NCBI GenBank assembly: GCA_038060895.1
Contig: JBBTCT010000036.1
Location: 4,883 to 68,882 of the forward strand
Length of the DNA: 64,000 nt
Direction of reading: 5' to 3'
Origin: Planctomycetota bacterium
GTDB taxonomy: Bacteria > Planctomycetota > MHYJ01 > WSZJ01
Below, piece after piece: positions 13,503-47,100 of the stretch. The position numbers were made by a program, and so were the translations under genes. Under the pieces are notes generated by a model. The model ran no database searches. It was not told where the DNA came from and saw only the letters and a list, made by a program, of their open reading frames with translations. Numbering within the stretch: the first letter of the stretch is position 1; the number at the start of each line of letters is the position of its first letter.

Positions 13503-16500
13503 TTATCGGTCTCCCAGCTGCGCGTACAACCCCTTGGCCTCCCCGTGCGATGGGTCCAGCTCCAGCGCCCTCTTCAGGCACTTGCGCGCTTCACCCAGGT
13601 TCTTCAGCAGGATCATCACCTTTCCCTTTCCAACCCACCCGTCGGGAGATTTCTCGTCCGCCCGAATGGCCCGGTCGAACGCGCTCAAAGCGGTGGGGAA
13701 GAGTTGCGCGGTGGCGGCGGCGTTTCCGAGCGACAGGAGGGTCGAGGCCCGCTCGCCCTGGATTCGGAGGGCGCGTTCAAACGCCTCCGTCGCCTCCGCC
13801 GCGCGCCCCGTGCTCGCCAACGCCGTGCCATAATTCACGAGCGCCTGCGCAAACCCGGGATCCAGGTCGACCGCCAGGCGGAATTCGACGACCGCCTCTG
13901 TTTCCCGGTGAAGCCCCACCAGCGCCAGCCCCAATAGATGATGAACGTCCGCGCTCGCCGAACGAAAAGATGCGGCGCGGCGAAGGGCCGTCAAGGCGCC
14001 TTCGTAGTCCTGATTCTGAAGAAGTTCATTTCCCACCACGACCAGGTCGGCGCTGAAAAGCTCCTCCTTCCGGAGTGAATCGAGGAGCGGCTGCAGGTCG
14101 GCTTCCTTCACCGGCCGGGCGAACATCCGGCGCATCCGGCCCTCTCCATCGAAAACAAGCGTGGTCGGCAGCGTGGCATGGCCATCCCGACCGAAAAACG
14201 AGTCCAGGGAGGCCGGGTCTGCAATCATGTTGGTCCACTTCACGCCAGTGGACGCGAGCAGTTCCCGCGCTTCCTTTTCCTCCGAGGCGTTCACCAGAAC
14301 CGCCGTGAACTGCACGTCGCTGCCGGATGCGACCGAGACCCGCGCCAGGTCCTGAAGTTCTTCCCGGCACGACGCGCAGGTCGGCGACCAGAAGTGAACC
14401 ACGGCAGGCCGGCCAGGCTTTGCCAAGGGCGAGCGTTCTCCTCCATCCATCGGCTGCATGGCCACCGACAAGTCAAATCGCTTTGCTGCCAGCGGCCGCG
14501 AGTCCGCAGGCCAGCATGGAATCGCTTCCGCCCGCGCTTCCCGGTCGCCCTCTCGAACCCGGATCAGGCGATCCACCGGAAGACCCTCCCAGCGTCCGGT
14601 CGCTCCCGACGGCCACGCGACCTCCAGCACGTCGATGCGTTCCGCGCCGGCCAATCCGAAGTGGATGTGCCCCGGCTGCTGGGTGATGAATCCGTCGGTC
14701 AGCTTCATCCAATCCTGCTGCTTCACTCCTCCCGCGGTCACGCGCACGATCGCGCCGAGCGCCATCGCATTCCCCTTCGTCGCTTCGAGGGCCACCCGGC
14801 AGAAATGCCGGGGCGCAGAGGTGTTTTCCATGATTCGCAACCCCTGCAGGCTCTGCAGCGCGAGGTCCAGATCTCCGTCCCCGTCGACATCGACCATCGC
14901 AGCCGCGCGCCCGTCGTCGTCGAAGTCGAGGCCCTTTACGTAAGCCGCGTCAAAGAAGCGCGGATAGGGACCATCCACGTTGTGGAAGCACTTGTCGCGC
15001 TCGTATCCGCTCCAGGAACCCGAGAAGCGTCTCTCGATTTCGCCGTTGATTTTTGGCGCGACCGCGCCGGATTCCAGGGCTTTCCCGTCGGCGACGACCT
15101 GTCGCCAGAAAAACGTTCACCAGTCCGGCGCAGAGGCGTCGGCGTGTGTGGTGAAGCCGTTTGCGACGAAGAGATCCTTGTCGGAGTCATTGTCGAGGTC
15201 AGCGAAGACGCAGGCCCAGGCCCAATCCGCCCACGCCACGTCGCGCTCGACCGCGGACTCCGTCCAGGCGCCCGAGGCGCTCTGTTCGAACAGCATGTTG
15301 CCGCGGGCCATGACGAGCGCGGAGGCGCGGGTCGAGTCGGTCAATGCGCCTGCGAGTGGCAGGATCCGGTTGCCCGCGTGGCTGTACATTTCCGACGTGT
15401 ACACGCTCCAGTTCCCGGTGTTGTCCCAATCGGCGATCGTGACGCCCATGGTGTAGGCGTTGGACCCTGAGAAAGGGTGTCCTTCGGCCCGTTTGAAATG
15501 CCCCCGGCCGTCCCCGAGGAACACGGGATTGGGTCCCCAGTCGTTGCACTCGTAGAAGTCGGTCTTTCCGTCGCCGTCGAAATCGAAGAATGCGCCGGCG
15601 TAGGTGTACTGCGTGCCCGTCAATCCGCGCTGGTCAGATTCTTCCGAGAACTTCAAACCCCCCTTGTTCATGAAGAGGAGGTTGTCGGCGCCGTCGAACG
15701 AGCCCAGCGAATTGAACTTCTCCTTCCCGGACTCCGAATCGGAGTACGCCCCGAACCAGAGATCGAGGAGCCCATCGCCATCGACGTCCCACGGGATGAG
15801 CGCCTGGATCATGATCTGGCGAATGCCATTCGCGGCCCGGAAACTAAGGGAGTCCGCCAACTTTCGCCACGCGCCGTCCTTCCGCGTGAAGATGGCGATC
15901 GTGCAGAGACCGTCCTCGTATCCGGAAACGTTACTATCAACGAGTTCTTCCAGCCCGTCCCCATCCAGGTCGATGAACGCGAAAACCGGGCCGGCATCCT
16001 GCGAGCCTTCGAACGGAGGCGCCTCCCTCCTGAACCCGCCGAGGCCGTCGTTCACGAACAGCACGGCGTGCTTCTCGTACTGGGTGGCGAGGATGTCCCA
16101 GAAGCCGTCGCGGTTCCAGTCGGCCACGCAAAGGCCGCTGTTTGTCCGGATGTTGCGCGCGTTGATGACGCGCTGGTGGAGATCGCGATTCTCGGTCGAC
16201 TCGTTGAAGTGAAATCCGGTCGCATCGGTCACGTCATTGAACGGGGGGCGCCTCGACTCGATGCGGCACCCCTCACGCAACGCAAGCCGGCTAATTTTCC
16301 AGGAATCGCCGGCCTTGACCACCTCCACGTCGAGGACAGCCTGAACGTCGGTCCGGCCCCGATCCGCGCGCGGACCGGCGAGTTGGAAATGCAGCGCGGC
16401 ACGTGCGGCGTTGCCGTCTTTGCGGAGCAGAAACTCGAAGAACCTCCAGGTCGTGCGTTCCACCGAGGTCCAGCCTTCCGCATGGCGCCGGAGGACCGCG

Positions 16501-25196: not shown

Positions 25197-28100
25197 TTGA
25201 TCAGGATTCGGAACTTCGCCGTGGCACTCCTGCTCGCGGCCGCTTCTGCCGGCGCGGGGGACGTCAAGGTGGCGATGCAGCACCAGACTTCCGCCGGCCC
25301 TTCGGTTTCGGTCACGATGATGGAGGGGACGGACTGGAAGGAGGGCCCCTGCGAGAAGATGCTGAGGCTGCCGAAGTTCAGGGGGACGCAGAAGTGGGGC
25401 GAGATCCTGCTCGATGCGGGGTCGGACAAGTCCTTCGCGGTCGTGCTCGACGACGCGGGCCCGGGCGAGGATCTCTTCTATGTGGACGCCAACAACAACG
25501 AGGATCTGACCGACGACGGCGAGCCGGCGAAGCAGTACACAAAGGAAGCGACTTCGCTGGGGAGGTACTGGAAGCTGACGGTCGAGCACGGGAAGAAGGC
25601 GAGCGAGTACCAGATGTATGTGTACACGTACGAGACGAACAAGAAGGGTTTTTCGGCGTATCGCGGGATGGACTGGTGGGAAGGGAACGCGACGCTGGCG
25701 GGGCAGGAGGTGAAGTTCGCGATCGTGGACATGAACTCGAACGGGCGGTTTGACGACCTGGAGAAACTCGCGCTCTGCATCGACTACAACGCGGACGCGA
25801 AATACGACGGGGAGCCGGACTCGAACGAGCGGTGGAACGGCAACGAGCCGTTCGCGGCGGCCGGCAAGGGGTGGGTGCTGAAGTCGGTGAGCGAAGCCGG
25901 CGACGAAGCGGTGATCGCGGAGCATACGGAGGCCGTCGCGATGCGGCCGCCGCTGGGTCCCGGGTCGCCCGCGCCGGAATTCACGGGGACGGACAAAGAC
26001 GGCAACGACGTGTCGCTGGCGGCGCTCGCCGGGAAAGTCGTGCTGGTCCAGTTCTGGACGATGGGGTCGGCGGACGTGACGCTGGCGCTCGACGTGCACA
26101 AGAAGGTTTATGAGGCGTACAAGGACAAGGGATACGAGATCCTCGGCGTCAACCTGGATGCCGACAAGGCGAAGGCGCAGGACTTCGCCGCTTCACACGA
26201 GATGACCTGGCCGATCGTCTACGACGGCCAGATGCTGGAAGGGCAGATCGCGAAGCAGTTCCGGCTCTACACCTATCCGCGGCTGTACCTGGTCGATGCG
26301 GACGGCGTGATCCGGGACAACAGCATCTCGGCCGCGAACGTGGAGAAGGCCGTTGCGGAAATGCTCTCCGACGCGGACGCGGAACCTCTGACGCCCGCGA
26401 AGCCGGCGGATCTCGCGGCGTTCCTGCCGAGGGTCGAAAAGGGGGACTGGTGGCTCGTGTTCCACCAGCGGCGGTCGGAGACAGACGGGGGCGAATTCCT
26501 CCTCTATATGGTAATGGAGGAGTCGGCGGAGCGGCTCGGGATCATCGTGAGTTCGACGTCCGGCTGGTCGTTCGCGCTGGGCGTGGACCGGGCAACCTGG
26601 AACATTGCCAGCGTCAACCCGACCTTCACGGACTGGGACCAGAAGGCGGAGAAGATCCGCATCGCGCCGGAGAAGGACCGGCGCGTGGACCTTCAGGGTT
26701 CGCCCTCCCTCGTCATGCTCCGCCAGTACCCGAACTTCGACGTGCTCTTCCACGCGTTCCCCGGCGGCGTTTCCGGCGTCCTCACCTGCATGACGGAGCA
26801 GTCCGCGGCGGCCACTTTCACGGAAACCGCCCCGATGGCGTGCGAGGCGTTCGTCGACGCGAACGGCCGGCTCGTAGGGAAGTACAAGGCGACGATGGAC
26901 CGGCATGTGGTGCGGGTAAAGCAGACCTGGGAGAAGGGGCTGCCCTTCCCGAGGCGCGTGACGTACTCGAATTCGATCGCAGGTTCGCGCGGGGTGCTCA
27001 CCCTGTGCCGCGCCGGCAAGAAGGTCGGGCTGGCGTTTCCTGCGGTCCCGGCGGCGCACCGGATCGCGGGAATGGACAGCTCGATCGACGACGCGCCGGT
27101 TTCCCGATGTCCTTCACGCAATTTCATCGGCGAAGACGCGGTCGCCGCGGCCTGCGAAAAGCTGGCGCCCGGCAAACCGACCCAGACGCTCGACATGCGC
27201 GGCTCGGGATACTGGAACCGCGGCGACATCATGAAGGTGTACTGGCAGGTGCGGGCGATTCCGAAGGTGCTTTCGGGGCCCAGGCCCGTCCAGGCCGAGA
27301 AGACGGTGGAAATTCCCGTCAGCGGGATCTTCATCCTCGAGTGCGTCGACCTGCGGCGCGTCGGCGACGAAGACCTCGTCTTCGTGCAGGCCTACGGCGA
27401 AGACACGCGGATGTATTCCTACGACACGAACTACGCCAGCCAGCAGGGGCAGCAGGGCCGCACGATCGCCGATCTCCTCTCGGGCACCGGGCCGCTGGTG
27501 TTCTCCAACCCCGAGTACTGGACCGACGCGGACCCGAAGAAGGCGAAGTGGGACCGCGTCGCTTACCTGCGCGGACGCCGGTACTACGGTGGCTACAGCT
27601 TCAGTTCCGCCACCACCGGCAAGCAGTGCACCACCTGGATTCTCGCGCTCCGCCGCGAGGACCTGTCCCTGCGCGCGGCCTACGGATACCACCTTGACTC
27701 CAACCTCAAGGCCGGCGAGTTCGGCGTCGTCGCCGACCAGTTCCAGCACGGCCCCGCTTTCGTCCGACAGTCCCTTCAGCTCGTCCGCCCGCAGGACTGG
27801 ATGCTGATCCAGTCGTTCGCGGGACTGAAGAACGGCGCCGCCAAGGGAAACGTTCTCAACCTCTCGCCGCAGGACGGCGGTTTCTTCCGGCAGGAAATGC
27901 TGAAGAACGAAGACTCGATCACGCAGCTCGTGAAGAACGACAAGTTCTTCACGCAGTTTTCAGAGCTCCTCGCAAAGCGCGCTCCGCCGCCCGAGGTCAA
28001 GAACGGCCAGAAGAAGCGCCAGGCGAAGGTCTCGCTCACGGAGCAGGACGTGGCGAGGCTGGAAGGCGGATTTGCGAACGGGGACTACTCGGGTGTCGTC

Positions 28101-28451
28101 AGGCGCCTGGAGGAGGGCCCGGCGAAGCGCGACCTGGCCGTGTTCCGCACCACGAACGGGCCCGGGCTCTGGGTCTACCAGGGCTACTCGGGGACGTTCT
28201 CGTGGTGGCGCGAGACGCTCGTCCTGAACTGGAAAGAGGGGTACCTCGCACGCCTCCGCATGTATATCCCCGTCCCACCCCGGCCGGGTTCCTGAGACGG
28301 CTGCGGCGACGAGCTTCTGGTAGAAGCTCCCACACCGTCGAAGCCCCCCGCGCCCGTCCCCGGTGGTCCCAAAGGAGATGGCGGCAAGGTCACGCCGCCG
28401 GCGCCGCCGGATGACGGGGGCGCCGAGGTTCCGGTCGATTCGGGAAAGTAG
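25197..28451 (+). CDS. Large exported redoxin (TlpA/AhpC-like)-domain protein; candidate selenoprotein with C-terminal UxxC (TGA 28293-28295), otherwise ending at 28295
   Basis: Signal peptide; APEFTG...GKVVLVQFW...GYEILGVNLD...YPRLYLVDADG thioredoxin fold lacking CxxC; TGA followed in frame by GAC GGC TGC (D-G-C), a Pro-rich tail, then TAG at 28449-28451. Confidence 0.7.
28293..28339 (+). promoter_or_regulatory. UGA plus SECIS-like hairpin (redoxin gene)
   Basis: Lower stem GACGG (28296-28300) / CCGTC (28335-28339); upper stem GAGCTTCT-GGT-AGAAGCTC (28311-28329) with GGU apical loop. Confidence 0.6.
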
Positions 28452-28564
28452 GAACGCGGGATCCTGGAAGTGCCTCAAGCCGCCCTCCTGCCCGTGCCGA
28501 TCTTTCAACGTCGGAGTACCCGTGTACCCGTCTCGCCAGGGGTGTTCCCGGAGGCAGGAGAAAT

Positions 28565-28609
28565 GGGTCAAAAAAGTCCTTGACCCCCCTTCCCCGGAAG
28601 CGCTACTGT
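28565..28609 (+). promoter_or_regulatory. Putative sigma70 promoter with overlapping inverted repeat, upstream of lipoprotein A
   Basis: TTGACC (28580-28585)-18 nt-TACTGT (28604-28609); GGGTCAA-N8-TTGACCC palindrome overlaps the -35. Confidence 0.5.
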
Positions 28610-29034
28610 TTGCCGTACTTAAGGGTCCGCATCGTCTCATTGAGCCGTTGCGGAGGGGTGTCGTAAAAGTGGGGTTCCCGCTGTCGCCGTGGCCTTCGGC
28701 CCAACGCGCGACGCCGGAACGAGACGTTTATCCCGAGCCGACGTAGCGCGCTCTTCTCGCGCATCCGTCGGGGCGCTGCCCGTGTCGTCGCGCCGTCGGT
28801 CCCGAGCCCGCGCTGTCCGGCGGGGAAGAGTCGTTCAGAAACGATAAAAATTGGATTCATAGGCTCCCATCGACGCGCCTTGAAAGGAGGTCGACCGCAA
28901 CGATCGAAGCCGAAAACTTGGTGCCTTAAAGTTCAGCAGGTTCGGATAAGTACCTGAGTCAACGACAGCATGTCGAACCGGGAAGCCGAGACTTCCCATT
29001 GTGACTTCAAACCAACTAACGAGGAGAACCACTG

Positions 29035-31752
29035 ATGTTGACAGGAAAGCGGTTCTGGACGCTGGCGACGGTCCTCGGGCTTTGCGTTCTCGCGACGGCC
29101 GGTTGCCGCCGCAAGAAGAGCAATGACTCGACGTTCTTCGGAGACAGCATCTTTACGACAGATACGTTCCCCGGCGACACCGTGCAGAACGGCAACGTAG
29201 CCGACGACGGAAAGGGCATGAGCCCCTCACTGGGTGGGGCGAACACGGGAAGTGTTCGAGTGACGTTCAACGGTGACCGCTGCACGGCGATGGTCACGTA
29301 CTTCCTCGGCGGTAGCGGTTTCTTTGGCTCCGGCAACAGCGGCCTGTACGCCCATTATTACGATGGCACGACGTGGACACCGCCGGTGCTGCTCCAGACA
29401 ATCGACTCGAACCAGGGGAACGGACTCGACGTGGGTTCGGTCGTGCACGTCGCCCTGAACACGGACCAGCACACCAGCAGTTTCGCGCAGGACCGGAACG
29501 GCGACTGGATGATCTTCTTCAAGATCAACGACGTCGACACCGACGCGGGAGGTCCTGACGACATCAACACGACGCTGCAGTACGTTTACTTCAACGTGGA
29601 ACACTCGACGAGCGCAAGCCGCCACTACGGCTTCAGTGAGTTCTCCACGCGCATTGACGTGCAGGACGAAACGGGCGAGAACGTCAACACGTTCGGCATC
29701 GTCAGCGACGGTCTTTGCGGTCAGGCCGCGTGGGTGAATGGCGCGCGCAACTACACCTGGGGCGACCAGGTGACTTCGGTTGAAGTCGTCTTCAACCAGG
29801 CTGAGAACAACGACGGCGTCGCCGGTACTGAAGACTTCGCTGTGTACTCGGTCCGGTTCGATCCGGCCGAAGCCACCCTGGGGACGCAGCCGATCACTCC
29901 GACCGGCACCGTGCGCCTCAGCATCGCCGCTCTCGGCGCTTCCGACTCGGGCACGTCGAGCGAAGAGACGCTGGTGTACGGCGAGTTCATGACCTACAAC
30001 AACAACCTCTTCATCCATGTCGCGGCCGAGAACGACACGATCGGCGACGACCCGGCCAACCTGAACGGCTACGGTTTCAGCGGCGAAGCGGGGCTCGACA
30101 TCATCATGGAGAACATCGCTTACAACCTGTCCACGGGCACGATCGGCGCCGCCACGGAACTTCAGTCGGGCGCTCCGGCTGCCACGGACACGGTCGAGAA
30201 CTTCGCCGAATGGATTCAGCCGGACGGCGGGTTCCTCAATTTCAACCAGACCCAGGGCCGCGTGATCTACGGTTCGGACGAGGGTCTCGCCGTGCTGGTG
30301 TTCTACCACTGCCAGGTTGCAGGCGACCTGGACGGAGAAGTCGACTTCGGCGACCTGACCAACGACGGTCGCATCATCCTGACCGAGCTCGTCGAGAGCA
30401 CGGGCGGGTTCAACGGCCAGATCTTCCTCGACCTCGAGCAGCCCTTGATCACGGATACGGTGGGCGTGATCGTGATCGACACCAGGATGAGCCGGAACGG
30501 CGACTACATCTGGTGCGCCTGGGGAGAAGTTCTGGACTCGGGCATCACCGACGAAGTCGCGGTGTTCGCTTCACAGTACACGACCACACGGATCAACGAC
30601 GACGGCACCTTCCCGGTGGCGTTGGCGTTCGGAGATTCGGTCAGCGCTCCGATTCAGGTCTCCGCGGACGTCGACGGCGAGGGCGTGACGTGGCTCGCGT
30701 TCCAGGATTGCCTGGGCTACGTTTGCGGCGCCCAGAGCGACCCGAACTCAATGAACCTCGTGTTCGAGCAGTCCAGCGGCACGTTTGACGAAATTGACCG
30801 CTGCGAGCTGATCGCCGACATCATTCCTCCGGGCTGCGTCCCGGGCTTCGTGACCACGATCTTCGAGGTCTCGAATGCGGGTGAAGACGGTGACTATGTC
30901 GATAGCAGCCTGAACACCGCCGGCAACCGGTTCAAGGCCACGGACGGTGGGCACAACGGCGACATCTATGCCGTGTACCGCGAAGACATCGATTCGACGG
31001 CCACCGACGATTTCCGCTGCGTCGCCGAGCGCGACGGCACGGTTTTCCCGGGCGCCGGCTTCATCGACACCTTCGTGACTTTCCGCCAGATCCCCGCTCA
31101 GGCATTTACGTTCATCTGCCTGCCCGCGGGCCAGAGCATCGGTCGGTTCGATGTCGTCAGCCTGACCGACGACCAGAGCCGGTTCCATCCGAATACGTTC
31201 GTGCATACCTTGTTCTTCGAGGACTCCATCAGTGAGTTCGACGTCCTCAACGATGCGCTCCGTACCCGGCAGTTTAACGCCGCGGACACGGGCGAGACCT
31301 TTACGGAAGCCTTCGTGCCGGAAGCCGGAGCCGTCTATTTCGATCCGTTCGAAATTACCCTTCCGAACGTCGGTGATCCGACCTACATCACACCTCCGTA
31401 CATCATGGCGATCGGTCGTGATGGCGACGTCGCTGGCGTGATGTTCTTCAGCCAGCTCCACGTCTACTATCAGGAGTGCGCGACGAACCAGAGCAGCATC
31501 GGCTGGGCGCTTGCCGAGGGCGACAGCGGAGATCTGGCGGCCGACGTCATCACCCCGGCAGGCAATCCGTTCTTGGTGGATGACTCGGAACTCGAGTCGT
31601 ACGTCAACAACAACGCGGGTAACCCCGTGGCGTTCACCAAGTCCTGCACTTGCAGCAACCTCGGGTGCATGATGGCTTTCTGGGTCGACAATCCGGCTGA
31701 CAGCCAGACCCTTCGTCTGCACGTCCGGGTTCGTTTCAACCAGGGTAACTAG
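29035..31752 (+). CDS. Large acidic lipoprotein A of unknown family (905 aa)
   Basis: GAGGAG RBS; lipobox LATAG-C; Asp/Gly/Thr-rich beta-type sequence; full-length paralogue at 47760..50462. Confidence 0.85.
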   Translation: MLTGKRFWTLATVLGLCVLATAGCRRKKSNDSTFFGDSIFTTDTFPGDTVQNGNVADDGKGMSPSLGGANTGSVRVTFNGDRCTAMVTYFLGGSGFFGSGNSGLYAHYYDGTTWTPPVLLQTIDSNQGNGLDVGSVVHVALNTDQHTSSFAQDRNGDWMIFFKINDVDTDAGGPDDINTTLQYVYFNVEHSTSASRHYGFSEFSTRIDVQDETGENVNTFGIVSDGLCGQAAWVNGARNYTWGDQVTSVEVVFNQAENNDGVAGTEDFAVYSVRFDPAEATLGTQPITPTGTVRLSIAALGASDSGTSSEETLVYGEFMTYNNNLFIHVAAENDTIGDDPANLNGYGFSGEAGLDIIMENIAYNLSTGTIGAATELQSGAPAATDTVENFAEWIQPDGGFLNFNQTQGRVIYGSDEGLAVLVFYHCQVAGDLDGEVDFGDLTNDGRIILTELVESTGGFNGQIFLDLEQPLITDTVGVIVIDTRMSRNGDYIWCAWGEVLDSGITDEVAVFASQYTTTRINDDGTFPVALAFGDSVSAPIQVSADVDGEGVTWLAFQDCLGYVCGAQSDPNSMNLVFEQSSGTFDEIDRCELIADIIPPGCVPGFVTTIFEVSNAGEDGDYVDSSLNTAGNRFKATDGGHNGDIYAVYREDIDSTATDDFRCVAERDGTVFPGAGFIDTFVTFRQIPAQAFTFICLPAGQSIGRFDVVSLTDDQSRFHPNTFVHTLFFEDSISEFDVLNDALRTRQFNAADTGETFTEAFVPEAGAVYFDPFEITLPNVGDPTYITPPYIMAIGRDGDVAGVMFFSQLHVYYQECATNQSSIGWALAEGDSGDLAADVITPAGNPFLVDDSELESYVNNNAGNPVAFTKSCTCSNLGCMMAFWVDNPADSQTLRLHVRVRFNQGN

Positions 31753-31920: not shown

Positions 31921-34900
31921 TTGCAGACAAAACGCATCCTGCTCGTGCTGCTCGTGCTTGCCGTGGCGGGAGGAGCGGTCGTGCTTTCCCTCCGCAAGTC
32001 CGGCGTGCCGGAGACTCCACGCGGATTCCTCCAGAGGCCCGGAGTGTTCGTTACGGAATTTGAGAAGTCGGAGGCCGTTTTTGACGTCGCCTCCGGGGCA
32101 GTGAAGAAGTCCTTCATGAAGGCCCTCAAGGCGCGGGACTGGGCATCGGCCGCGGCGAGCCTGACGCCGGATTTCAGGGGTCGTTTTCCTCGACTCGCTG
32201 ATGGCGCGGAAGTGCAGGACAGAAACGTCTCCATCCGCGCCTACAAGGCGTCCGGCCTGCCCGAACTGAAGGCCGAAGCGTTTCTCGCCGCCATCCGCGA
32301 GCAGACCGAGGGTTGGACCCAGGTGGAACGGACAACCTGGCGTCCCTTCGAGTTCCTCCTCGATCCGGCCGAGAACCAGGCGTACCTGAGCATTCACTTC
32401 CAGCTTGCCGGCCCGCTTCCGGACGGGAGACGCATCGACCTCGCGGGGGAGGTGAAAGCGATCATCGTCCGCGCCGGGGAGACCTGGAAGGTGCGGGAAC
32501 TGGGGTGGGAGGATGGGAGCAGACTCGAGGCGAAGTTTGTCCCCTGGGCCGACGTGACGGAGCAGACCGGGTTCACGTTCAACGACTCGCCTGAGAACGC
32601 CAGGCTCGTCCAGGAACTCATCAACGCGCGGCGGACCGTCACCGTGGGCGGGCTGATCGCCGCGGACGTCAACGGGGATGGCTTTCCCGACCTGATCTCG
32701 ACGCGCGCGGAACAGGACACGAACGTCTTTCTGAACGACGGACGCGGCGGATTTACCCGCGGCCAGGCGCCCATCCTCGAAGGGAAGCTGTGTCCGAGGA
32801 GTTTTCTGCTGCTCGACCTGGACGGCGACGGCGTCGAGGAACTGGTCAGCGGGTCCATCGACGAGTACGAAGAGGAGCGCGCCTGGGCCGACATCTGGGT
32901 GAGGAACGGGGATTCCTGGAAGCGGCGCCCGCGGGCGCTTGAGTTCCGGATTGCCAGGGCGACCCGGGACATCGCGATTGAGGCCATCGTCCCCACGGAT
33001 GTCGACGGAGACGGACGCCTCGACCTGTATTTCGGCGCCTACAGCACACGAGATTCCCGAACGACGAAATTCAACCGGATTGCGGCCTACGACGGCGCCG
33101 ACAACCTGCTGTTCATGAACCATGGCGGGCTGAAATTCACGGAAGAGTCCGACCAGAGGGGAATCCGTGGAACGCAGTACACGTTTGTCGCCAAGACGTT
33201 CGATTTTGACGGCGACGGCGATCTCGACCTCTGGGACGGAAACGACTACGGCCCCAACGCGCTCTGGCTCAACGACGGAACCGGCAAGTTCGTGGAGGGG
33301 AAGGGTCACATCCTCCAGGAAGGCTCGAACTACACGATGGGCGTGACGATCGCGGACTGGGACAACACGGGCGCCTGGAGCATGTACATCTCCAACATGT
33401 ACAGCCATGCCGGCAATCGAATCGTCCCCCTCGCGGCGGATCTGGGCGAGGACATCAAGAAGGCGGCTCTCGTGCTCGCGGTCGGAAACCAGATGTACGA
33501 GCGGGACGAAAAGACGAAGGCGTGGCGTGAGACGGGCGTATTCCGGGGAGTCAACTGGGCCGACTGGTCCTGGGCCACCCTCTTCCTGGACGGCGACAAC
33601 GACGGCGACAAGGACCTGTTCGTCGCCAACGGATATACGAGCAACCAGGACGCGCAGGCCCCGGACTACTGAACGCACTTCTGGCGACAGGTGGTCGCCG
33701 ATGCACGGCTCATGCAGCAGGGAAAAAATCCGGGAACGTCGTTCTACGAGGGGTCGCAGTGGTTCCGCGGATCGTGGAGCGGATACGAGCGGGACGATTA
33801 CTTCCACAACCCGGACGGCGCCGACCCCCGCTTCTTCCAGTCTTCCTACATCTACGGCCTCGACTTCGACGACGACGGGCGCGCGGGCGTGCCTGTGGAC
33901 ATCGACGGCGACGGGGACCTGGACCTGGCCCTGCAGAGCCTCCAGGGGTTGCGCCTCATGGAGAACACTTCCCCCGCCCGCAATTTCGCCCGGGTTCGCC
34001 TGACGGCGACAAAGACCGAAAATCTCGCCCTCAACGCCGTCGTCAAGGTCATCTCCGCCGGCGTTGCCCAGCAGGACTACGTCCGCCTGACGGACGGGTA
34101 CGCTTCCCAGGTCCCCCGCGAACTGCACTTCGGCCTCGCGGACGCGACGGGCATCGATGAAATCCGGGTGGAGTGGAGATCCGGCGATGTGCAGGTCCTC
34201 AAAGGCCTGCCGGTCAATCGCCTCATCGAGATCACGGAAGGGCAGGAGAAACCCGTCATTTCCGAGCTCAGGAAATGGCCCGACGAATTCCGGCCGAAGC
34301 GCAAACCTCAGTTTTCCTACGACATCGTCGCAGACCGGATCGAGGGAGGCCCGGGCTCCCTGGCTTCCAAGGGCAAGCCCGTCGTGATCAACTTCTGGGC
34401 GCCCTGGTGCGCCGGTTGCGTCGAGGAACTCCCGGAACTGGCGAGAATCGCTTCCGCGAACGCCGGTGAATTCCAGTTCGTCGGCGTCAGCGTCGAAACC
34501 GGAAAGAAGGAAGATGTCCTGAAGGCCATCGCGGATTTCGGGCTGAAATATCCCCAGTTCTACGCGAACGAAGCTCTTCTCCGGAGTTTCTTCGGGGACG
34601 CGGGAGACGCTGCCCTGCCTTCGACTTTCGTGCTGGATGCGCAGGGAAAACTCCGCCGTGTCTTCCGCAGAGCGCTGGGTTCCGGTGAACTGGACGGGGT
34701 TCTCGACTCGTTGAAGCAGGAAGGAACACGTAAGGCGCTCTATTTCCGCCTCGCGGGCGAGAAGGTCGACGCCGGCAGGCCGGATGAAGCGATTCCCTAT
34801 CTCGACAAGGCCCTGGAGATTTCACCCGACGACGCGGAAGCGTGGTTCCACAAAGGCGGCTGCCTGTTCCAGACCGGCAAGGTCGAAGAGAGCGTGGTGG

Positions 34901-37383: not shown

Positions 37384-40300
37384 GTGGCGGACGGCGGGTC
37401 GAACGGCCGGCGCTTCCTGGCGTTCGGGGGAGGCCTGTTGATCCTGGTGCTGGGCGCGATCGCGCTCGTGGCGCTTCTCAAATCGCCGCCCGCCGGGCCC
37501 GGGGAATTCGTCCCCCGCCCGGCCTCGTTCATCTCGGACATCGTGAAGTCCGAGGACGCCTACGACATCGTCAACCCGACCATCAAGGGGACATTCGTCA
37601 AGGGGCTGAAGGGGCGCGACTGGGGGATGGTGGCCTCGTCGCTGGCGCCGGACTTCAAGGCGCGGTGGCCGAAACCCGGCGACGGCAGGGAACTGCCCGA
37701 TGGGGCCATCGCGCTTCGCGAGTACCGCGAGACGCAGTGGCCCGACGCGGACGCGGCGGCGTTCGTCCAGATCCTCAAGGAGCACGTCGACGGCTGGTCA
37801 GCGGTGGAACGCACGACCTGGCGTCCCTTCGAATTCCTCATGGACATCGGCGGCCTCGCGGCCTTCGCGAGCATCCATTTCCAGGTCGCCGGCGTGCGCC
37901 CGGACGGGACGCGCGCGGACCTCGCGGGGCTCGTGCAGGCGCAATTCGTGTCGAAGGACGGGAAGGCGTGGCAGGTGAGGAGGCTGGAATGGGTGGAGGG
38001 GTGCCGCGGCGAAGCGCGGCACAAGCCATGGCGGGATGTGACGGAGGCGTGCGGGCTGACGTTCAACGAAGGCGAGGAAGTTCGCAAGCTGCGCGCGCAG
38101 CTCATCGACGACCGCGGCGTCGTGACGCTGGGTGGGCTGTCGGTCTGCGACTGGAATGGGGACGGGTTCTACGACGTGCTCGCGACGCGCGCGGGGACCG
38201 AGTCGGCGCTTTTCATGAACGACGGAAAGGGCGGTTTCGTGCGTGCGGCGTCGCCGATGAAAGAGGGGCGCGAAGCGGGATTCAGTCCGCTCCTCCTCGA
38301 TCTCGACGGCGACGGGAAGGATGAACTGCTGACCGGGCAAGTGCTTTCCTACGAGAACCAGACGGCGTACATCGGCGTCTACGTGCAGGAGAACGGAGGG
38401 TGGACGCTGCGCCCGAGGGCGCTGGCGGCGCCGCTGGCGAAGGGCACGCGCGCCGTGCTGGTGCAGGGCGTCGAGCCGATGGACGCGGACGGCAATGGGC
38501 TCATAGACCTGTTCTTCTGCAACTATTCCAGCACGGATTCACTCGGCAGGGACTTCAACCGCGTCGCGGCCTACGACGGGATGGACAACTGGCTTTTCAT
38601 GAATTACGGGAAGCTGGATCTTCGCGAAGAATCCGACGGGCGCGGGATCGCCGGGACGCAGTACACGTACGTCGCCAAGGCGTGGGATTTCGACGCGGAC
38701 GGCGATTCCGACATCTTCGAGGGGAACGACTTCGGCCCGAACCACCTCTGGCTGAACGACGGGAAGGCGAATTTCGCGGAAGCGAAGGACCATATTTTCG
38801 GCGCCGACTCGAACTACACGATGGGCGTGTCCATGGCGGACTTCGACAACACGGGCGACTGGACGATGTACATCTCGAACATGTACTCGCACGCCGGGAA
38901 CCGCATCGTGCCGCTGTCGAAGGGGATCAGCCCGGAAATGAAGCGGCTCGGGATGATCCTCGCGCAGGGGAACCAGATGTACGAGCGCAGGGGCGGCGTG
39001 TGGAGCGAGACTGCGGTCGCTCGCGGCACGAACTGGGCGGACTGGGCGTGGTCGTGCCTCTTCTTCGACGCGGACAACGACACCGACAAAGATCTCTTTG
39101 TCGCGAACGGTTTCACGACGAACACGGACCCGAAGGCCCCGGACTACTGAACGCACTTCTGGCGCCAGGTGGTCGCCGACGCGAAGGCCGTGGAGACAGG
39201 GGGGCGGACGTCGCTCACCAACGCGAACATCCAGCGCGACTTCCGCGGGTCTTGGAGCGGCTACGAACGCGACTGCCTCTTCCAGAATCCGGACGGACTG
39301 GCGCCGCGGTTCGTGAACTGCGGGTACCTTTACGGGCTGGACTTCGACGACGACGGGCGGTCGGCCTGCCCGGTGGACATCGACGGCGACGGGGACCTCG
39401 ACATGGTGTGCCTGTCGCTTCAGGGCCTGCGTCTCATGGAAAACACGTCCCCGAAACGGCACTTTGCGCGCATCCGGCTTTCGGCCGGGCCGTCGCACGT
39501 TCTTCCGCTCAACGCACTCGTGAGGGTGACGGCCGGCGGAGTGACCCAGCAGGACACGCTGCGCATCACCGACGGATTCCTCTCCCAGGTCCCCGCCGAC
39601 CTGCATTTCGGGCTCGGCAGCGCGGACAAGATCGACGCAGTCGAGATCACCTGGCCCGGAAGCGGTACGCCGGCGCGATTTTCGGCTCTTCCCGCAAACC
39701 GCCTGCTCGAATTCGTGCCCGGGGAAGCGGCCCCTCGCGTTTCGGAGCTTCGGGCCTGGCCGGCCGAAACGCGGCCGCGGCTGGCGCCCGAGTTTTCGTT
39801 CGCGATTGCGGCGAAGGGGCTCGATGGGAGCGAAGGGCCGCTGGCGGAGAAGGGAAAGCCGGCAGTTGTGAACTTCTGGTCGCCGACGTGCGCGCCGTGC
39901 AAGGAGGAGCTTCCGCTTCTCGCGGCTGCGGCGGACCGGCTCGCGGGACAGGTCCGGTTCGCCGGCGTGAGCACGGAGATCGCCGACGTCGCTTCGGTGA
40001 CTCAAGCGGCCGCCGCGTTCAAGCTCAATTACCCGCAGTTTCTCGCGAACGACGCCCTCGTGCGCAGTTTCTTCGGCGCCGGCGGCGCGGTCATTACGCC
40101 CTCCACGTTCGTCTTCGACGCAGGCGGCCGCCTGCGGCGTGTCTTCCAGCGGACGATCGCGGCAGGCGAGCTGGAAGCCCTGCTCTCGACCTTGAGGGAC
40201 GAGGGACTCTCGGCCTACGACCTCGAGCGCCGTGGGATGCGCTTCATGGACGTCGAGAACTACGAGCAGGCCGCCGCGTTCCTCAAGCAGGCCTCCGACC

Positions 40301-40758: not shown

Positions 40759-43700
40759 GCGCGCATCCGGCTGTGGGCAGAACAGGAATGCTGGCCGCGG
40801 GAATCGCCGCGTTTCTGGTCACGGTCGGGATCGTCATCGTGATGAAGAGCGGGCAGGGCGCGGCCGCGGCGGCCCCCCTGGCGCGGCCCTCGAAGTACAT
40901 AGTGGATGTGGAGCTCTCCGAGAGGACGTACGAAGTCGCAAACGCGTCTCTGAAGGGACGATTCGTGAAGGGACTGAAGGAGATGGACTGGGAGAAGGCG
41001 CGGGCGGGTTTGGCGACGGGGTTCCGGGGCAGGTTTCCGGCGCCGCTCGAGGGACGGGAAGTTGCGGACGGCTGGGTGGGTGTGCGCGATTACGCCGCAG
41101 CAGGCCTTCCCGAACTCGACGCTGACGCCTTTCTCGGCGTGTTGCGCGACCACCTCGCCGGATGGGCTGTCGTGGAGCGCACGACCTGGCGGCCGTTCGA
41201 GTTCCTGCTCGACCCGGGACTCAAGTCCGCCTACATCAGCCTGCATTTCCAGGTCGCCGGACAGAAACCGGACGGCCTTCGTGCGGACCTGAGCGGCATC
41301 CTGAGCGGCCGGATCGCAAGCGCCGACGGGAAGGACTGGCACATCGAGCGCCTCGAGTGGGTGGAGGGAACGCGCCTCGATTCCTCCCGGCCGCCCTGGG
41401 TGGACATCACGGACGAAACCGGGCTTCACTTCAATGAGTCCGAATCCAACCTCAAGCTCCGCCGCTCGATGATCGACGACCGCGGGCTGACGACCTCGGG
41501 GTCGCTGGTCGTTTCCGACTGGAACCGCGACGGTTTTCCCGACGTGCTGGCCAGCGTTCAGACAGGCATCCTCGCCCTTTTCCTCAACGATGGCCGGGGC
41601 GGCTTCGTCCGCGGAAAGGCGCCGGAAGTTGCTCCCGACCACGTGGCCACCGCCTACGTGGCGCTGGACCTGGATGGGGACGGCACGGACGAGCTTGTGA
41701 GCGGCCTGGTCCAGGTCGATCCCGGAGGGAAGGCGCGATTCCCGGTCTACATCCGCCGCGGAGAAGGCTGGGAAACGCGCTGGATCCGCTTCGACGTCCC
41801 GGTCGGGCTGCACGCCGTGAGCGTCCAGGGAATCGTCCCGGATGACTTCGACCGTGACGGGGACCTCGATCTGTTCTTCTGCTGCTACTCGAATGGCGAC
41901 TCGAAACACGTGGAATTCAACCGGGTCGTCGCCTATGACGGCGCGGACAACTACCTGTTCGTCAACCAGGGCGGATTCGCGTTCACGGAGGAGTCCGACA
42001 CACGAGGCCTCACGGGGACGCAGTACACCTACGTGGCAAAGTGGTGGGACTTCGATTTCGACGGCGATCTAGACCTGTTCGAGGGGAACGACTTCGGCCC
42101 GAACCACCTGTGGCTGAACGACGGCAAGGGGCGGTTTACGGACGCGAAGACGCACATTTTCGACGCGGACACGAACTACACGATGGGCGTCACGATCGCG
42201 GACTGGGAAAACGACGGGACCTGGGGAATGTATATCTCGAACATGTACAGCCATGCCGGGAATCGCGTCTTCCTGCTCGCCGACAACATGGGGCCCGAGA
42301 TGCGCCGGCTGGGGCTGCTGCTCGCGCAGGGGAACCAGTTTTACGAATGCGACCCGAAGAGCCGCGAGTGGCGGGAGACGGCGGTTTCGCGCCGCGTGAA
42401 CTGGGCCGACTGGGCATGGGGCACTTTCTTCTTCGACGCCGACAACGATGGCGACCGAGACCTCTGGGTCACCAACGGCTTCACCACGAACACCGACCCG
42501 AACGCCCCCGACTACTGAACTCACTTCTGGCGGCAGGTCGCCGCCGATGCCCGCGCCCTGGAAACCCGGCGTCGTCCGGAGCAGGATGCCAGGGCCGACC
42601 AGAAATTCCGCGGCTCCTGGAGCGGCTACGAGCGGGATTTCCTCTTCTATAACACCGACGGCCCGTCCGCCACCCTCCCCAACGCCGCCTACCTCTGCGG
42701 CCTCGATTTTGACGACGACGGACGCGCCGCGGCGCCCGTCGATATCGACGGGGACGGGGACCTCGACCTCGTCGTCCTCTCGCTTCAGGGCCTGCGCGTC
42801 GTCGAAAACACCGCTCCCGGCCGGCGCTTTCTTCGGCTCCGACTCGAAGGCGCGAAAGGACAGGCCGACGCGCTCGGCGCGTTGGTAAAGGTCGTGGCGG
42901 GTGGAGTAACGCAGCAGGACTACGCGCGCCTGACCGACGGATTCGCGACGCAGGTGCCGTTCGACCTGCACTTCGGGCTGGGGGAAGCGAAGCTCGCCGA
43001 CCGGGTGGTGGTGACGTGGCCCGGGGGGGAGACCCAGACGGCGCTCGACGTGCCGGCAGACCGGCTGGTCACGATCCGCCGCGGAAAGGACGGATTCGAA
43101 GCCCGCGAACTCCCGGGCTGGCCGGCCGGGTCGCGGCACGGGGTGCGGCCCGCGTTTTCGTTCGTCGAGGCCGCGACGAAGCTGGAAGGTGGTGCGGGAC
43201 CGCTGGCGGCGAAGGGGCGTCCGGCGGTGTTCAATTTCTGGTCGCCTTCCTGCGCTCCCTGCAAGGAAGAGTTGCCGCGCCTGGCCGCGCTTGCCGCGCA
43301 GTACCGCGACGTCGCGCAGTTCGCAGGCGTCTGCGTCGAAACCACGGACCTCGAGGCCGTTCGCGCCGCAGCGAAGTGTTTCGAAATCCCTTACCCGCTC
43401 TTCCTCGCCGATGAAGCCCTGCTCAAGTCCTTCTTCGGTACCGGAGGCGACGTGCCTCTCCCTTCCACTTTCGTGTTCGACGGCAACGGCGACCTCCGAA
43501 GGATCTTTCGCCGCGAGGTCGGGCAGGAAGAGCTGGGCCTGCTTCTCGCCTCCTTCAGCGACGAAGGAACCGGCGCAGCCGAGCTGGACCGGCGCGGCGC
43601 CCGGGCTCACCACCTGGGGAACGATCCCGAGGCCCTCGAGTGGCTGAAGAAAGCGCTGGCCGTGGATCCCGACTCCATGCTCGCGACATACCACATGGGG

Positions 43701-44141: not shown

Positions 44142-47100
44142 CCGTGAAACCGCCGGTGGCGCCCGCGAAGCGCGTGCAGATTCCGATGATGATTCCCGCC
44201 TGTTTTCTTGCGCTGGCGGCGATCGTCGCGCTGATGATCTACCTGAAGAACCTACCGAAGTCGACGGGGCCCTTCCTGACGCGCCCGGAGACTTTCGTGA
44301 CGGACTTCGCGAAGTCGGAAGGAGTGCACGACCTTGCCACGAGCGGCGGAACCGACAAGAAGACCGGCGCCGCCGTCAAGGGCGTGAAGGGGACGTTCCT
44401 GAAAGGGATGCGCGAGCGGGACTGGGGGATGATGGCCTCCGGAATGGCGCCGGGTTTCCGGGCCCGCTTCCCGCAAATTGCCGATGGAAAAGAAGTTCCC
44501 GACGGCCTGCTCCGGATCCGGCAATACGAGGGCTCGGAGCTCAAGCGCGAGCTGGACAAGGACGCGTTCACGTCGGTGATGAAGGAGCAGGTCGGCCCGT
44601 GGGCGGCAGTGGAGCGCGCCGTGTGGCGCTCGTTCGAGTTCCTGCTCGACCCGGGTGAAAAGAGTGCGTTCCTCAGTGCCCATTTCCAGCTTGCCGGGAT
44701 TCTCCCGGACGGCGGGCGCGTCGATTTCACGGGAGTCATCCAGGCCCGGGTGATCCGCGACGGCGACGTCTGGAAAGTGAAGCAGTTCGGGCTCGTCGAG
44801 GGGTGGCGGGCGGAATCGAGCTTCATGCCGTTCAACGACATCACCGATCAGGTCGGGCTGGCGTTCAACGAGTCCGAGGAGCGCCGCAAGGTCGCGCAGG
44901 GGCTGATCAACGACCGGGGCGTCGTCACGAGCGGGGGATTGACCGTCGCGGATTTCAATGACGACGGATTTCCCGACATCCTCGCCGCCTCGATCCACAA
45001 CGACGCGATCCTCTTCGTCAACGACGGACAGGGAGGCTTCATCCGCGGACCCGTCGTCACCAATCCGGAGGAATGCGGCCCCTGCTGGCTGTCCGTCGAT
45101 CTCGACGGCGACGGGGTCGAAGAGCTGGTCAGCTCCCAGGTCCTCTCGTACGAGGGCAACAAGGCGAAAGGCGCGATCTATCGCCGCAAGGGCGACGCCT
45201 GGGTGCTCGTTCCGGACGCGCTGGTTTTCCCGATTGGGCAGGGGGAGCGCGACCTTTCGATCCAGGGGATCGTTCCGCACGACGTCGACGGGAACGGACT
45301 CCTCGACCTGTTCTTCTGCGTCTACAGCAACCGCAACTCGAAGGGGCCGAACTACAACCGCGTCGTCGCCTACGACGGCGCCGACAACCATCTCTTCATG
45401 AACAAGGGCCACCTCGCATTCTCCGAGGAGTCCGACGCCCGCGGCATCACGGGGACGCAGTACACCTACGTCGCAAAATTCTGGGACTTCGATTTCGACG
45501 GGGATACGGACCTCTTCGAAGGGAATGACTACGGCCCGAATCACCTGTGGCTGAACGACGGGAAGGGAAAGTTCACCGACGCGAAGAGCCACATCTTCAA
45601 CGCCGATTCGAACTACACGATGGGCGTCACGATTGCCGACTGGGACAACACGGGCGCCTGGTCGATGTACATCTCCAACATGTACAGCCATGCGGGGAAC
45701 CGGATCCTTCCTCTCATGACCGGAGTGAAGGACGACACGAAGCGGCTCGGGCTGGTTCTCGCCCAGGGAAACCAGATGTACGAGTACGTCCCGGCAGGAC
45801 GGCAGTGGACCGAGACCGGCGTCAAGCGGGGCGTGAACTGGGCGGACTGGGCCTGGGCCTGCCTCTTCTGGGATCCCGACAACGACGGCGACCGCGACCT
45901 CTTCGTCGCGGACGGGTACACGACGAATTCCGACCCGAAGGCGCCCGATTACTGAACGTTTTTCTGGCGGCAGGTCGCCGCCGACGCGTCCGCACTGGAG
46001 AAGAAGGAGCAGGCATCCCTCGCCCGCAGCGAGGAGGACGCGCGTTTTCGCGGCTCCTGGAGCGGCTACGAGCGCGATTTTCAGTTCCACAACGCCGACG
46101 GGCCGTGCCCGGTTTTCTTCAATACGGCGTACCTGTGCGGCCTCGACTTCGACGACGACGGTCGCGCGGCCGCTCCTGTCGATATCGACGGGGACGGTGA
46201 CCTCGACCTCGTCCTGCTCTCGCTGCAGGGCCTGCGCGTCATGGAAAACCGCATGCCGCGAAGGCGCTTCGCGCGCCTCCGCCTCACCGCGACCACGACT
46301 GAGCCCCTCGCCCTCGGCGCCATCGTGTCTCTCACCGCCGGCGGCGTTACGCAGCAGGACTACGTCCGCATCACCGACGGGTTCATGACACAGGTCCCGC
46401 GCGAACTTCATTTCGGCATCGGCAACGCCGATAAAATCGACCGCATCACCGTTCGCTGGCCGGGCGGGAACGCGAAGGTCTATTCGGACATCCCCGCCGA
46501 CCGCCTGGTGGAAATCCGGGAGGACGAAGCGGCGCCGAAGGTGTCCGAGCTTCCGGCCTGGCCCGAGGCCACGCGCCCGAAGGCGCGCCCGTCATTCTCG
46601 TTCGAGACGGCCCTCGATCGGCTGGCGGGCGGAAAGGCGCCGCTCGCCACGACAGGAAAGCCCGCGGTCGTGAACTTCTGGTCCCCGACGTGCGCACCGT
46701 GCAAGGAGGAACTGCCGCGCCTGGCCGCGCTGGCGAGAGAATTCGGCGACCGCGTGCAGTTCGCGGGGGTCTCCGCCGAGTCGAAGGATCTTGAATCCGT
46801 TAGGAAGTCGGTCGCCGACTTCGGCGTCCCCTACCCGCAATTCCTGGCTAACGAGGCCTTCCTCAAGAGCTTCTTCGGCACCGGGGACGCCATTCTCCCC
46901 TCGACCTTTGTTTTCGACGGCGCCGGCCGCCTGCGGCAGTCCTTCCACCGCGCGATCTCACAGCCCGAGCTTGCTGCGCTCCTGGAATCCTTCCGCGAGG
47001 AATCCGTCGCCGCCGCCGATCTCGTCGCGCGAGGCTCCGCCCTCATCCAGAGCGGGGACTTCGAAGCGGCCGCCCGCTTCCTGCATGACGCCGTCAAGGC

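Follow-up and report, generated by a model that had tools for sequence, protein, structure and literature searches.

A candidate selenoprotein gene encoding a redoxin-fold domain and a conserved C-terminal extension beyond an in-frame UGA in a planctomycete genome

A redoxin-fold gene is followed by a 51-codon open extension

The gene of interest lies on the forward strand of a 64,000-nucleotide stretch of DNA (hereafter, the window) from a Planctomycetota bacterium (assembly GCA_038060895.1, contig JBBTCT010000036.1, positions 4,883–68,882). Its open reading frame (ORF; 25197–28295) terminates at a TGA (28293–28295) after 1032 amino acids, and beyond this codon the same frame continues as U-DGC-GDELLVEAPTPSKPPAPVPGGPKGDGGKVTPPAPPDDGGAEVPVDSGK for 51 codons, up to a TAG at 28449–28451 (Table 1). 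These coordinates agree with a preliminary description of the locus, made from the sequence alone, in which the TGA was proposed to encode selenocysteine (Sec, U) and the shorter ORF was expected to look complete to gene callers; indeed, the public calls all stop at the TGA. From the comparative sequence evidence set out below, we consider it probable that positions 25197–28451 encode an exported selenoprotein of 1083 residues, in which the UGA is read as Sec.

Table 1. Features of the candidate selenoprotein gene and its upstream neighbor (positions in the window).
Feature	Position	Strand	Basis
1032-codon gene part	25197–28292	+	TTG start; ORF list and translation
Redoxin (AhpC-TSA/TlpA-like) domain, residues 256–374	25962–26318	+	Pfam
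In-frame UGA (candidate Sec, residue 1033)	28293–28295	+	TGA column kept in 9/9 homologous loci
SECIS-like hairpin	28296–28339	+	Folding, homologue alignment, bSECIS constraints
C-terminal extension, 51 codons	28296–28448	+	dN/dS, in-frame indels, uninterrupted paralogues
Final stop TAG	28449–28451	+	Orthologues end at the same column with TAG, TAA or TGA
TPR-repeat gene, 346 residues	24062–25102	+	Pfam TPR_2, TPR_14

The open frame alone is no evidence for translation of the extension. The G+C content of the window is 62–73% (genome, 65%), and in a genome-wide control, consisting of all stop-to-stop frames of at least 300 codons that end in TGA in this genome, 52% of 3792 frames stay open for at least 51 codons beyond the TGA. 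The extension contains no in-frame ATG, GTG or TTG; separate initiation is thus excluded, and the extension can only be reached through the UGA. The junction reads ...PGS-U-DGCGDELLVEAPTPSK, and the tail peptide within the extension is VTPPAPPDDGGAEVPVDSGK. One aquifer metatranscriptome sample (X6) yielded RNA contigs that match positions 27855–28158 and 28421–28713 at 100% identity. These contigs are uninformative on termination, because none spans the UGA together with the hairpin that follows it, and because DNA carry-over is possible.

The predicted protein consists of, in order, (i) a signal-like N-terminus, (ii) an N-terminal region rich in D-x-D/N, (iii) a TlpA/redoxin-fold domain, and (iv) a domain of ~640 residues. 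The N-terminus is a hydrophobic segment that appears signal-like by reading of the sequence, rather than by a predictor. The redoxin-fold domain is matched by the Pfam models AhpC-TSA (4.9e-20) and Redoxin (1.3e-17), with Thioredoxin_8 included and the span reaching residue 383; in a PDB profile search, matches were restricted to this TlpA/ResA-type part (ResA and TlpA chains). The label of redoxin gene, which the preliminary description had used, therefore holds for the fold but not for the active site: the redoxin active-site cysteines are absent from all seven orthologues (FW-TMGSA in the window, FWS..S.D in orthologues), and a paralogue (P0012) likewise has no CxxC. Because the fold lacks the CxxC cysteines, the public name 'disulfide reductase' is misleading and unlikely to be right.

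The remaining ~640 residues match no family in Pfam, in NCBIfam or, for residues 400–1032, in the ESM Atlas, where the best score (0.82) is at chance level. The tail likewise matches zero families in NCBIfam and Pfam. An AlphaFold model of residues 400–1084 has a mean predicted local distance difference test score (pLDDT) of 64.5 and a predicted TM-score (pTM) of 0.71, and contains a confident, beta-rich first domain. Searching the first ~210 modelled residues against the PDB with Foldseek gave weak LolA/YmcC/CT021-like matches (E 2e-5, TM 0.33–0.44), a likeness that may serve as a lead and falls short of an assignment. From just before the Sec position through the tail pLDDT is ~30, and the tail is hence predicted to be disordered; in the model, the Sec position would be the hinge at which the folded body gives way to a proline-rich tether. 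The extension itself is made up of a Cys at +3, the hairpin-encoded peptide ELLVEAP, a proline-rich spacer, and a conserved terminal motif, PPDDGGAEVPVDSGK, such that the tail ends in EVPVDSGK-COOH. While the length of the tether differs between subfamilies (it is much longer in a paralogue of 42% identity, introduced below), the last ~15 residues are conserved.

The TGA and the extension are conserved among homologues

Homologues were sought by a six-frame search of 41 related genomes; the query joined the final 200 residues of the ORF to the extension. The search returned 13 matches in 8 genomes. No matches beyond these 13 were obtained from a search of 12 genomes of the order, a separate scan of genome contigs added no genomes to those already found, and a scan of JGI metagenomes gave one weak locus (L043) without usable similarity. 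Nine homologous loci, in 8 genomes, share the architecture described above: the window, six other genomes of the genus, the 42% paralogue in one of those six, and a homologue of 34% identity from another family of the same order. In all nine the TGA occupies the identical alignment column; at none is it replaced by TAA or TAG. The genus orthologues read ...PGS-U-DGC-GDELLVEAPTPSKPP...PPDDGGAEVPVDSGK-stop. Besides the window, such orthologues (70–91% identity) are found in six of the seven other genus genomes, with no match in the seventh (82% complete).

The ratio of nonsynonymous to synonymous substitution rates (dN/dS) in the extension is 0.04–0.35 at dS 0.5–1.0 (six pairs against the window), as compared with 0.05–0.31 in the 199 codons upstream of the TGA. 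By this measure, purifying selection on the extension resembles that on the upstream gene, in line with the conservation that the preliminary description had proposed to look for. Variable sites fall at codon positions 1, 2 and 3 in 19, 21 and 37 cases, respectively (of 50 codons), and insertions and deletions among orthologues are multiples of three. Nucleotide identity to the window is 69–86% before the TGA, 62–87% in the extension, and 21–40% in the 200 nt after the stop. All copies share one downstream stop column, which holds TAG, TAA or TGA.

The last of these stops occurs in the orthologue from genome G006 (loci L025/L037), the extension of which ends, at the usual stop column, with a second in-frame TGA that is not followed by a hairpin. 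Since this hairpin-less TGA terminates the protein, TGA appears to be context-dependent rather than reassigned to sense. In the mRNA of this orthologue, the UGA to be read (with hairpin) and the terminating UGA (without hairpin) lie 49 codons apart.

In four paralogue loci that lack the TGA, the homologous segment is uninterrupted (PGRPERERPLWVDRPTP...). A public protein of 254 residues, P0014, is also uninterrupted across the region and has the C-terminus PPEGGVDVPVDTGD. An L-x-V-[ED]-x-P-x-P segment is common to the four paralogues and P0014, the latter also carrying a PPEGG-DVPVDTG end. P0014, from public contigs of 14.5–17.8 kb, is distantly homologous to the C-terminal domain; its gene call gives a short protein on its own, with V as the first residue and no TGA. 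When 14 sequences were placed on a midpoint-rooted tree, at least two changes were required to explain the TGA state, which is present on both sides of the deepest split. The tree favors an old TGA with later losses, an inference made unsure by long branches.

A SECIS-like hairpin follows the UGA

Directly after the TGA lies a long hairpin with a GGU loop, its stems and loop as given in the preliminary description. The lower stem pairs GACGG (28296–28300) with CCGTC (28335–28339), and the 8-bp upper stem pairs GAGCTTCT (28311–28318) with AGAAGCTC (28322–28329); the loop, GGT in the DNA (28319–28321), starts 23 nt past the UGA. The minimum free energy (MFE) of positions 28285–28350 is −29.5 kcal/mol (z = −2.64; 2 of 200 shuffled sequences fold as well). 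According to the parts of a recent catalogue that were covered, bacterial selenocysteine insertion sequence (bSECIS) elements have (i) a loop of 3–9 nt, (ii) a stem of 4–16 bp, (iii) a position 16–37 nt from the UGA, (iv) a G in the first two loop positions, and (v) an MFE of −7.5 or lower (PMC13188914). The hairpin falls within all of these bounds (GGU loop, 8-bp stem, 23 nt, MFE −22 to −29 kcal/mol), so scoring it as a SECIS element, as had been proposed, gives a positive outcome. An intrinsic terminator was considered and rejected: no U-tract was found after the hairpin, where the sequence continues as CCCACACCGTCGAAG, and a terminator and promoter scan of 28000–29200 returned nothing on the + strand.

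Hairpins of this kind are rare after TGA triplets. Of 6014 sampled TGA triplets, 13 (0.22%) are followed by a Watson-Crick stem that has 8 bp or more and obeys the bacterial SECIS rules on loop and spacing; with G-U pairs allowed, the count is 458 of 12007 (3.8%). With G-U pairs permitted, all nine TGA-bearing loci can form a qualifying stem of 8 bp or more; in the paralogues without the TGA, only 4–5 bp can form at the aligned place (4/4). In an alignment of eight homologues the upper stem pairs in every one; U-A gives way to A-U once (a compensatory change) and to U-G twice. The 34% homologue, which has the A-U replacement and also a U-G pair, retains the stem. At the equivalent place, the 42% paralogue carries an unrelated hairpin (CGGGGACC, loop CGUUCGU, GGUCCCCG), 19 nt past the UGA. 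Among the seven genus orthologues, third positions vary in one of the six stem-loop codons versus 36 of the 44 other extension codons (Fisher p = 0.003, a value overstated because the sequences are kin).

The organism decodes selenocysteine

The genome is a Planctomycetota metagenome-assembled genome of 5.4 Mb in 47 contigs (86.5% complete). The preliminary description had taken the organism to decode Sec, and this is independently borne out by (i) a tRNA-Sec (71.7 bits, cut-off 47), (ii) selA and selB, which like the selD below score above curated cut-offs, (iii) a selD gene that itself contains an in-frame TGA (G000:C2:48628-49548; SSCAG-U-ASK, followed by a GGC-loop hairpin), and (iv) a gene for an FdhA-like molybdopterin oxidoreductase (G000:C2:208314-210188; CNRT-U-HAPS, followed by a GGUCU-loop hairpin). 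Within the order, all 12 genomes carry selA. A second tRNA-Sec called by ARAGORN (G000:C1:472898-472990) was rejected as a probable false positive, given the mismatches in its acceptor stem, its 75% G+C and its absence from the Rfam hits.

A cysteine is kept close to the UGA within the genus

The U-D-G-C motif that first drew attention to the gene is kept in six of the seven genus orthologues. The seventh reads G-C-U-D-G-T, the Cys having shifted to −1, and a Cys therefore lies within three residues of U in all seven. This retention of a vicinal Cys is suggestive of selenium-sulfur chemistry. Two further truncated public proteins end in ...PGC. The preliminary description had suggested looking for CxxC or UxxC at this position in homologues; the second was found, within the genus, and the first in none. 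Homologues without the TGA have Pro at the U column in the four paralogue loci, P0011 being the product of one of these, and Phe in P0014. All known selenoproteins are said to have Cys homologues, as stated in the parts of PMC12013277 covered. The sampling for Cys homologues is thin here, because the family is tiny.

Proposed mechanism and alternative explanations

Taken on the comparative evidence, translation through the UGA is nearly certain, and Sec is very likely the residue inserted there. Conservation of the TGA, the extension and the hairpin also supports the earlier suggestion of an independent Sec gene in this locus. In the proposed mechanism, (i) the hairpin downstream of the UGA would recruit SelB-GTP-Sec-tRNA(Sec), (ii) Sec would be inserted at the UGA, and (iii) the ribosome would continue for 51 codons, to the TAG. 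A failure to insert Sec would end translation at the UGA and leave a tail-less, 1032-residue form. Most likely, Sec and the neighboring Cys (U-x-x-C in six orthologues, C-U in one) would cycle via a selenenylsulfide on a flexible arm, which would provide a redox or chalcogen/metal-binding center to a protein whose thioredoxin-fold domain has lost its cysteines. A redox arm is our best guess at the function.

Several observations weigh against this interpretation. Regarding the hairpin, covariation is statistically weak, with six of the eight stem pairs invariant and 58 of 500 shuffles reaching the observed score; the lower stem is broken in two of eight sequences; and the loop starts 23 nt past the UGA, versus 17–18 nt in selD, the FdhA-like gene and five ASPIC/UnbV genes of the window (paralogues of one another, described below). 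Conservation of the stem is partly confounded with that of the peptide it encodes, ELLVEA, and an Rfam scan of 28200–28600 with E up to 10 gave three chance-level hits and zero SECIS families. Regarding the residues, the two distant TGA-bearing homologues (U-NSQ and U-KAK) have no Cys near U and their flanks are unconserved, and a Cys is aligned to Sec in none of five distinct homologues without the TGA.

Some of these points fit a different mode of decoding, in which the UGA is read by a near-cognate tRNA (for example, that for Trp), perhaps aided by the hairpin, such that a standard residue is inserted and the same 51-residue tail is made. All of the comparative data indicating that the tail is translated are equally compatible with such decoding; moreover, Pro or Phe, never Cys, aligns with U, and the flanks of U vary in distant homologues. 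We nevertheless regard it as unlikely: the genome holds the complete Sec machinery, the hairpin obeys the bSECIS rules with a GG[U/C] loop that matches those of the organism's own selD and FdhA-like Sec codons, and the vicinal Cys is kept in every genus orthologue (moving from +3 to −1 in one). To our knowledge, though no search aimed at this was made, no programmed stop readthrough that makes a conserved tail has been established in bacteria.

A further possibility is that Sec is inserted mainly as a gate, the supply of selenium and SelB setting the balance between tailed and tail-less isoforms, rather than for catalysis. The non-redox residues (Pro, Phe) at the Sec position in homologues are consistent with this, as are the location of Sec in a disordered linker ahead of a variable-length spacer and a conserved C-terminal motif, and the distribution of the TGA state, which needs at least two changes on the midpoint-rooted tree and is present on both sides of its deepest split. 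A pure gate would, on the other hand, have no need of the Cys that lies within three residues of U in all seven genus orthologues, and no precedent was found in the literature covered; we judge it quite unlikely. There is a small but real chance of a related arrangement, namely a selenoprotein family without a Cys counterpart in which the UGA and SECIS element act mainly as a selenium-dependent gate, at the hinge that joins a folded body to a tether with a docking motif, with Sec secondary or serving as a single covalent attachment point. Under such gating, the partner on which the tail docks could be the syntenic TPR protein encoded upstream.

Finally, it is highly unlikely that the TGA is a real stop, the hairpin a terminator or mRNA-stability element, and the open frame a product of chance; for this speak the 52% of long TGA-ended frames that are followed by 51 open codons and the public annotations, which all end the protein at the TGA, and against it the low dN/dS of the extension (0.04–0.35), the drop in identity to 21–40% immediately after a shared stop column, the uninterrupted paralogues, the lack of a U-tract or a + strand terminator call, and the retention of the TGA at 34% protein identity.

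Insertion of Sec, which we prefer to the above alternatives, would make this gene a candidate for a new, narrowly distributed selenoprotein family. It would be an unusual one, in that no Cys counterpart was found and Sec lies in a predicted disordered tail.

Rarity, annotation and relation to known selenoproteins

The family is rare: it has 8 matches among 5.8 billion clustered proteins, and 8 profile matches among 1.84 billion representatives (one of them weak and unrelated); neither search brought up further relatives, with Cys at the U column or otherwise. Of 28 public gene calls for the family, 25 end one residue before the U column. They carry the names 'TlpA family protein disulfide reductase', 'redoxin domain-containing protein', 'peroxiredoxin' and 'hypothetical protein'. 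With every public copy truncated at the UGA, the only plausible redox center, the predicted Sec, goes unannotated.

A full-text literature search, which among supplements covered Table S9 of PMC4807772, found no description of the family. A 2026 selenoprotein catalogue counts 119 families (PMC13188914); in the parts covered, no entry has a matching description. One of its entries, 'Redoxin family protein, PF08534, UxxC', was compared by description only and may be identical. None of the planctomycete candidates seen in the portion of Table S9 covered resembles this gene; they include redoxin-type candidates with Cys aligned to Sec and ASPIC/UnbV candidates with Gly aligned (PMC4807772). The families of Haft and Tolstoy (2025) were compared indirectly, via NCBIfam release 20.0. 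Standard selenoprotein pipelines need a Cys/Sec pair, judging by the portion of PMC12013277 covered, and would therefore discard the present family by design. Were Sec confirmed, the rule that every selenoprotein has Cys homologues could be put to the test on this family, and the Sec site would be an unusual one, lying where the disordered, proline-rich tail of an exported protein begins. Should the gate reading be true, the presence or absence of the tail on the protein would be set by selenium supply.

The nearest known systems by annotation are the redoxin-type selenoproteins, among them the ResA-like WAxxUGC selenoprotein (NF041054) and, in the parts of Table 1 of PMC13188914 covered, a Prx-like thiol:disulfide oxidoreductase and the 'Redoxin family protein' (for which only motifs are listed). 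These share with the present gene the TlpA/AhpC-TSA fold, a UxxC-type motif, and database names. They differ in the position of Sec: in the NF041054 type, as read from the name of the model, Sec replaces an active-site Cys within the thioredoxin fold, whereas here that site holds neither Cys nor Sec in any of the seven orthologues, and Sec lies ~650 residues further on. The match to NF041054 reaches 27 bits, where 300 is the cut-off, and covers the redoxin fold only. We therefore place the gene outside those redoxin-type selenoprotein families that have Sec in the thioredoxin active site.

Escherichia coli fdhF is the textbook bacterial selenoprotein gene with a SECIS element inside its ORF. 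The present gene is like fdhF, as well as the organism's own selD and FdhA-like gene, in having a conserved UGA followed within 16–37 nt by a hairpin whose loop starts with GG[U/C], in a host with selA, selB, selD and tRNA-Sec. It is unlike them in that no Cys homologue was found, and in that Sec is placed in a disordered tail outside any recognizable catalytic domain. As far as its sequence allows one to say, the gene works like any bacterial selenoprotein gene, showing every sequence-level hallmark except the Cys/Sec pair, with weak covariation in the hairpin.

Animal thioredoxin reductase carries a C-terminal Gly-Cys-Sec-Gly redox arm. By analogy, both proteins would have Sec and an adjacent Cys on a flexible C-terminal extension, the likeness being closest in the orthologue that reads G-C-U-D-G. 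Here, in contrast, 51 residues follow Sec, a flavin domain is lacking, the protein is bacterial and appears to be exported, and the SECIS element lies inside the coding sequence.

The ASPIC/UnbV-FG-GAP candidates are a further point of comparison. In the portion of PMC4807772 covered these are, like the present candidate, large, exported-looking planctomycete proteins with a TGA and a hairpin, and a residue other than Cys (Gly) is aligned to Sec in their non-Sec relatives. The ASPIC/UnbV paralogues of the window nevertheless differ from the present gene in that their sequences and Sec contexts are unrelated to it: their context is PDY-U-THFWRQV, mid-protein, and their redoxin domain keeps CxxC.

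Neighboring genes and other candidates in the window

The TPR-repeat gene (Table 1) lies directly upstream of the candidate selenoprotein gene in six of six orthologous loci, at 71–92% identity, and the two genes probably share an operon. Its N-terminus is hydrophobic and, again by reading of the sequence, signal-like. Hypothetically, the TPR protein might be a binder of the conserved C-terminal tail motif.

The five ASPIC/UnbV paralogues have their in-frame TGAs at 33670–33672, 39148–39150, 42516–42518 and 45953–45955 on the + strand, and at 15119–15117 on the − strand, each in the context PDY-U-[TF][HF]FWRQV. A hairpin lies 10 nt after the TGA in these genes, with a 6–7 bp stem and an AGGUN loop; the stem bases vary, yet pair. 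When two of the five were read through, the products were of ~1120 residues, with FG-GAP and UnbV_ASPIC matches in Pfam, a redoxin domain whose CxxC is intact, and TPR repeats. Together with the candidate described above, these five genes suggest a largely unannotated selenoproteome in groundwater Planctomycetota.

Downstream of the final TAG lies a gene for a product of 905 residues (ATG at 29035). Two RNA contigs from one aquifer sample (X14 and X15) begin at 28875 and 28879, respectively, and enter this gene. Positions 28875–28879 may be its transcript start, as seen in contigs from that one sample.

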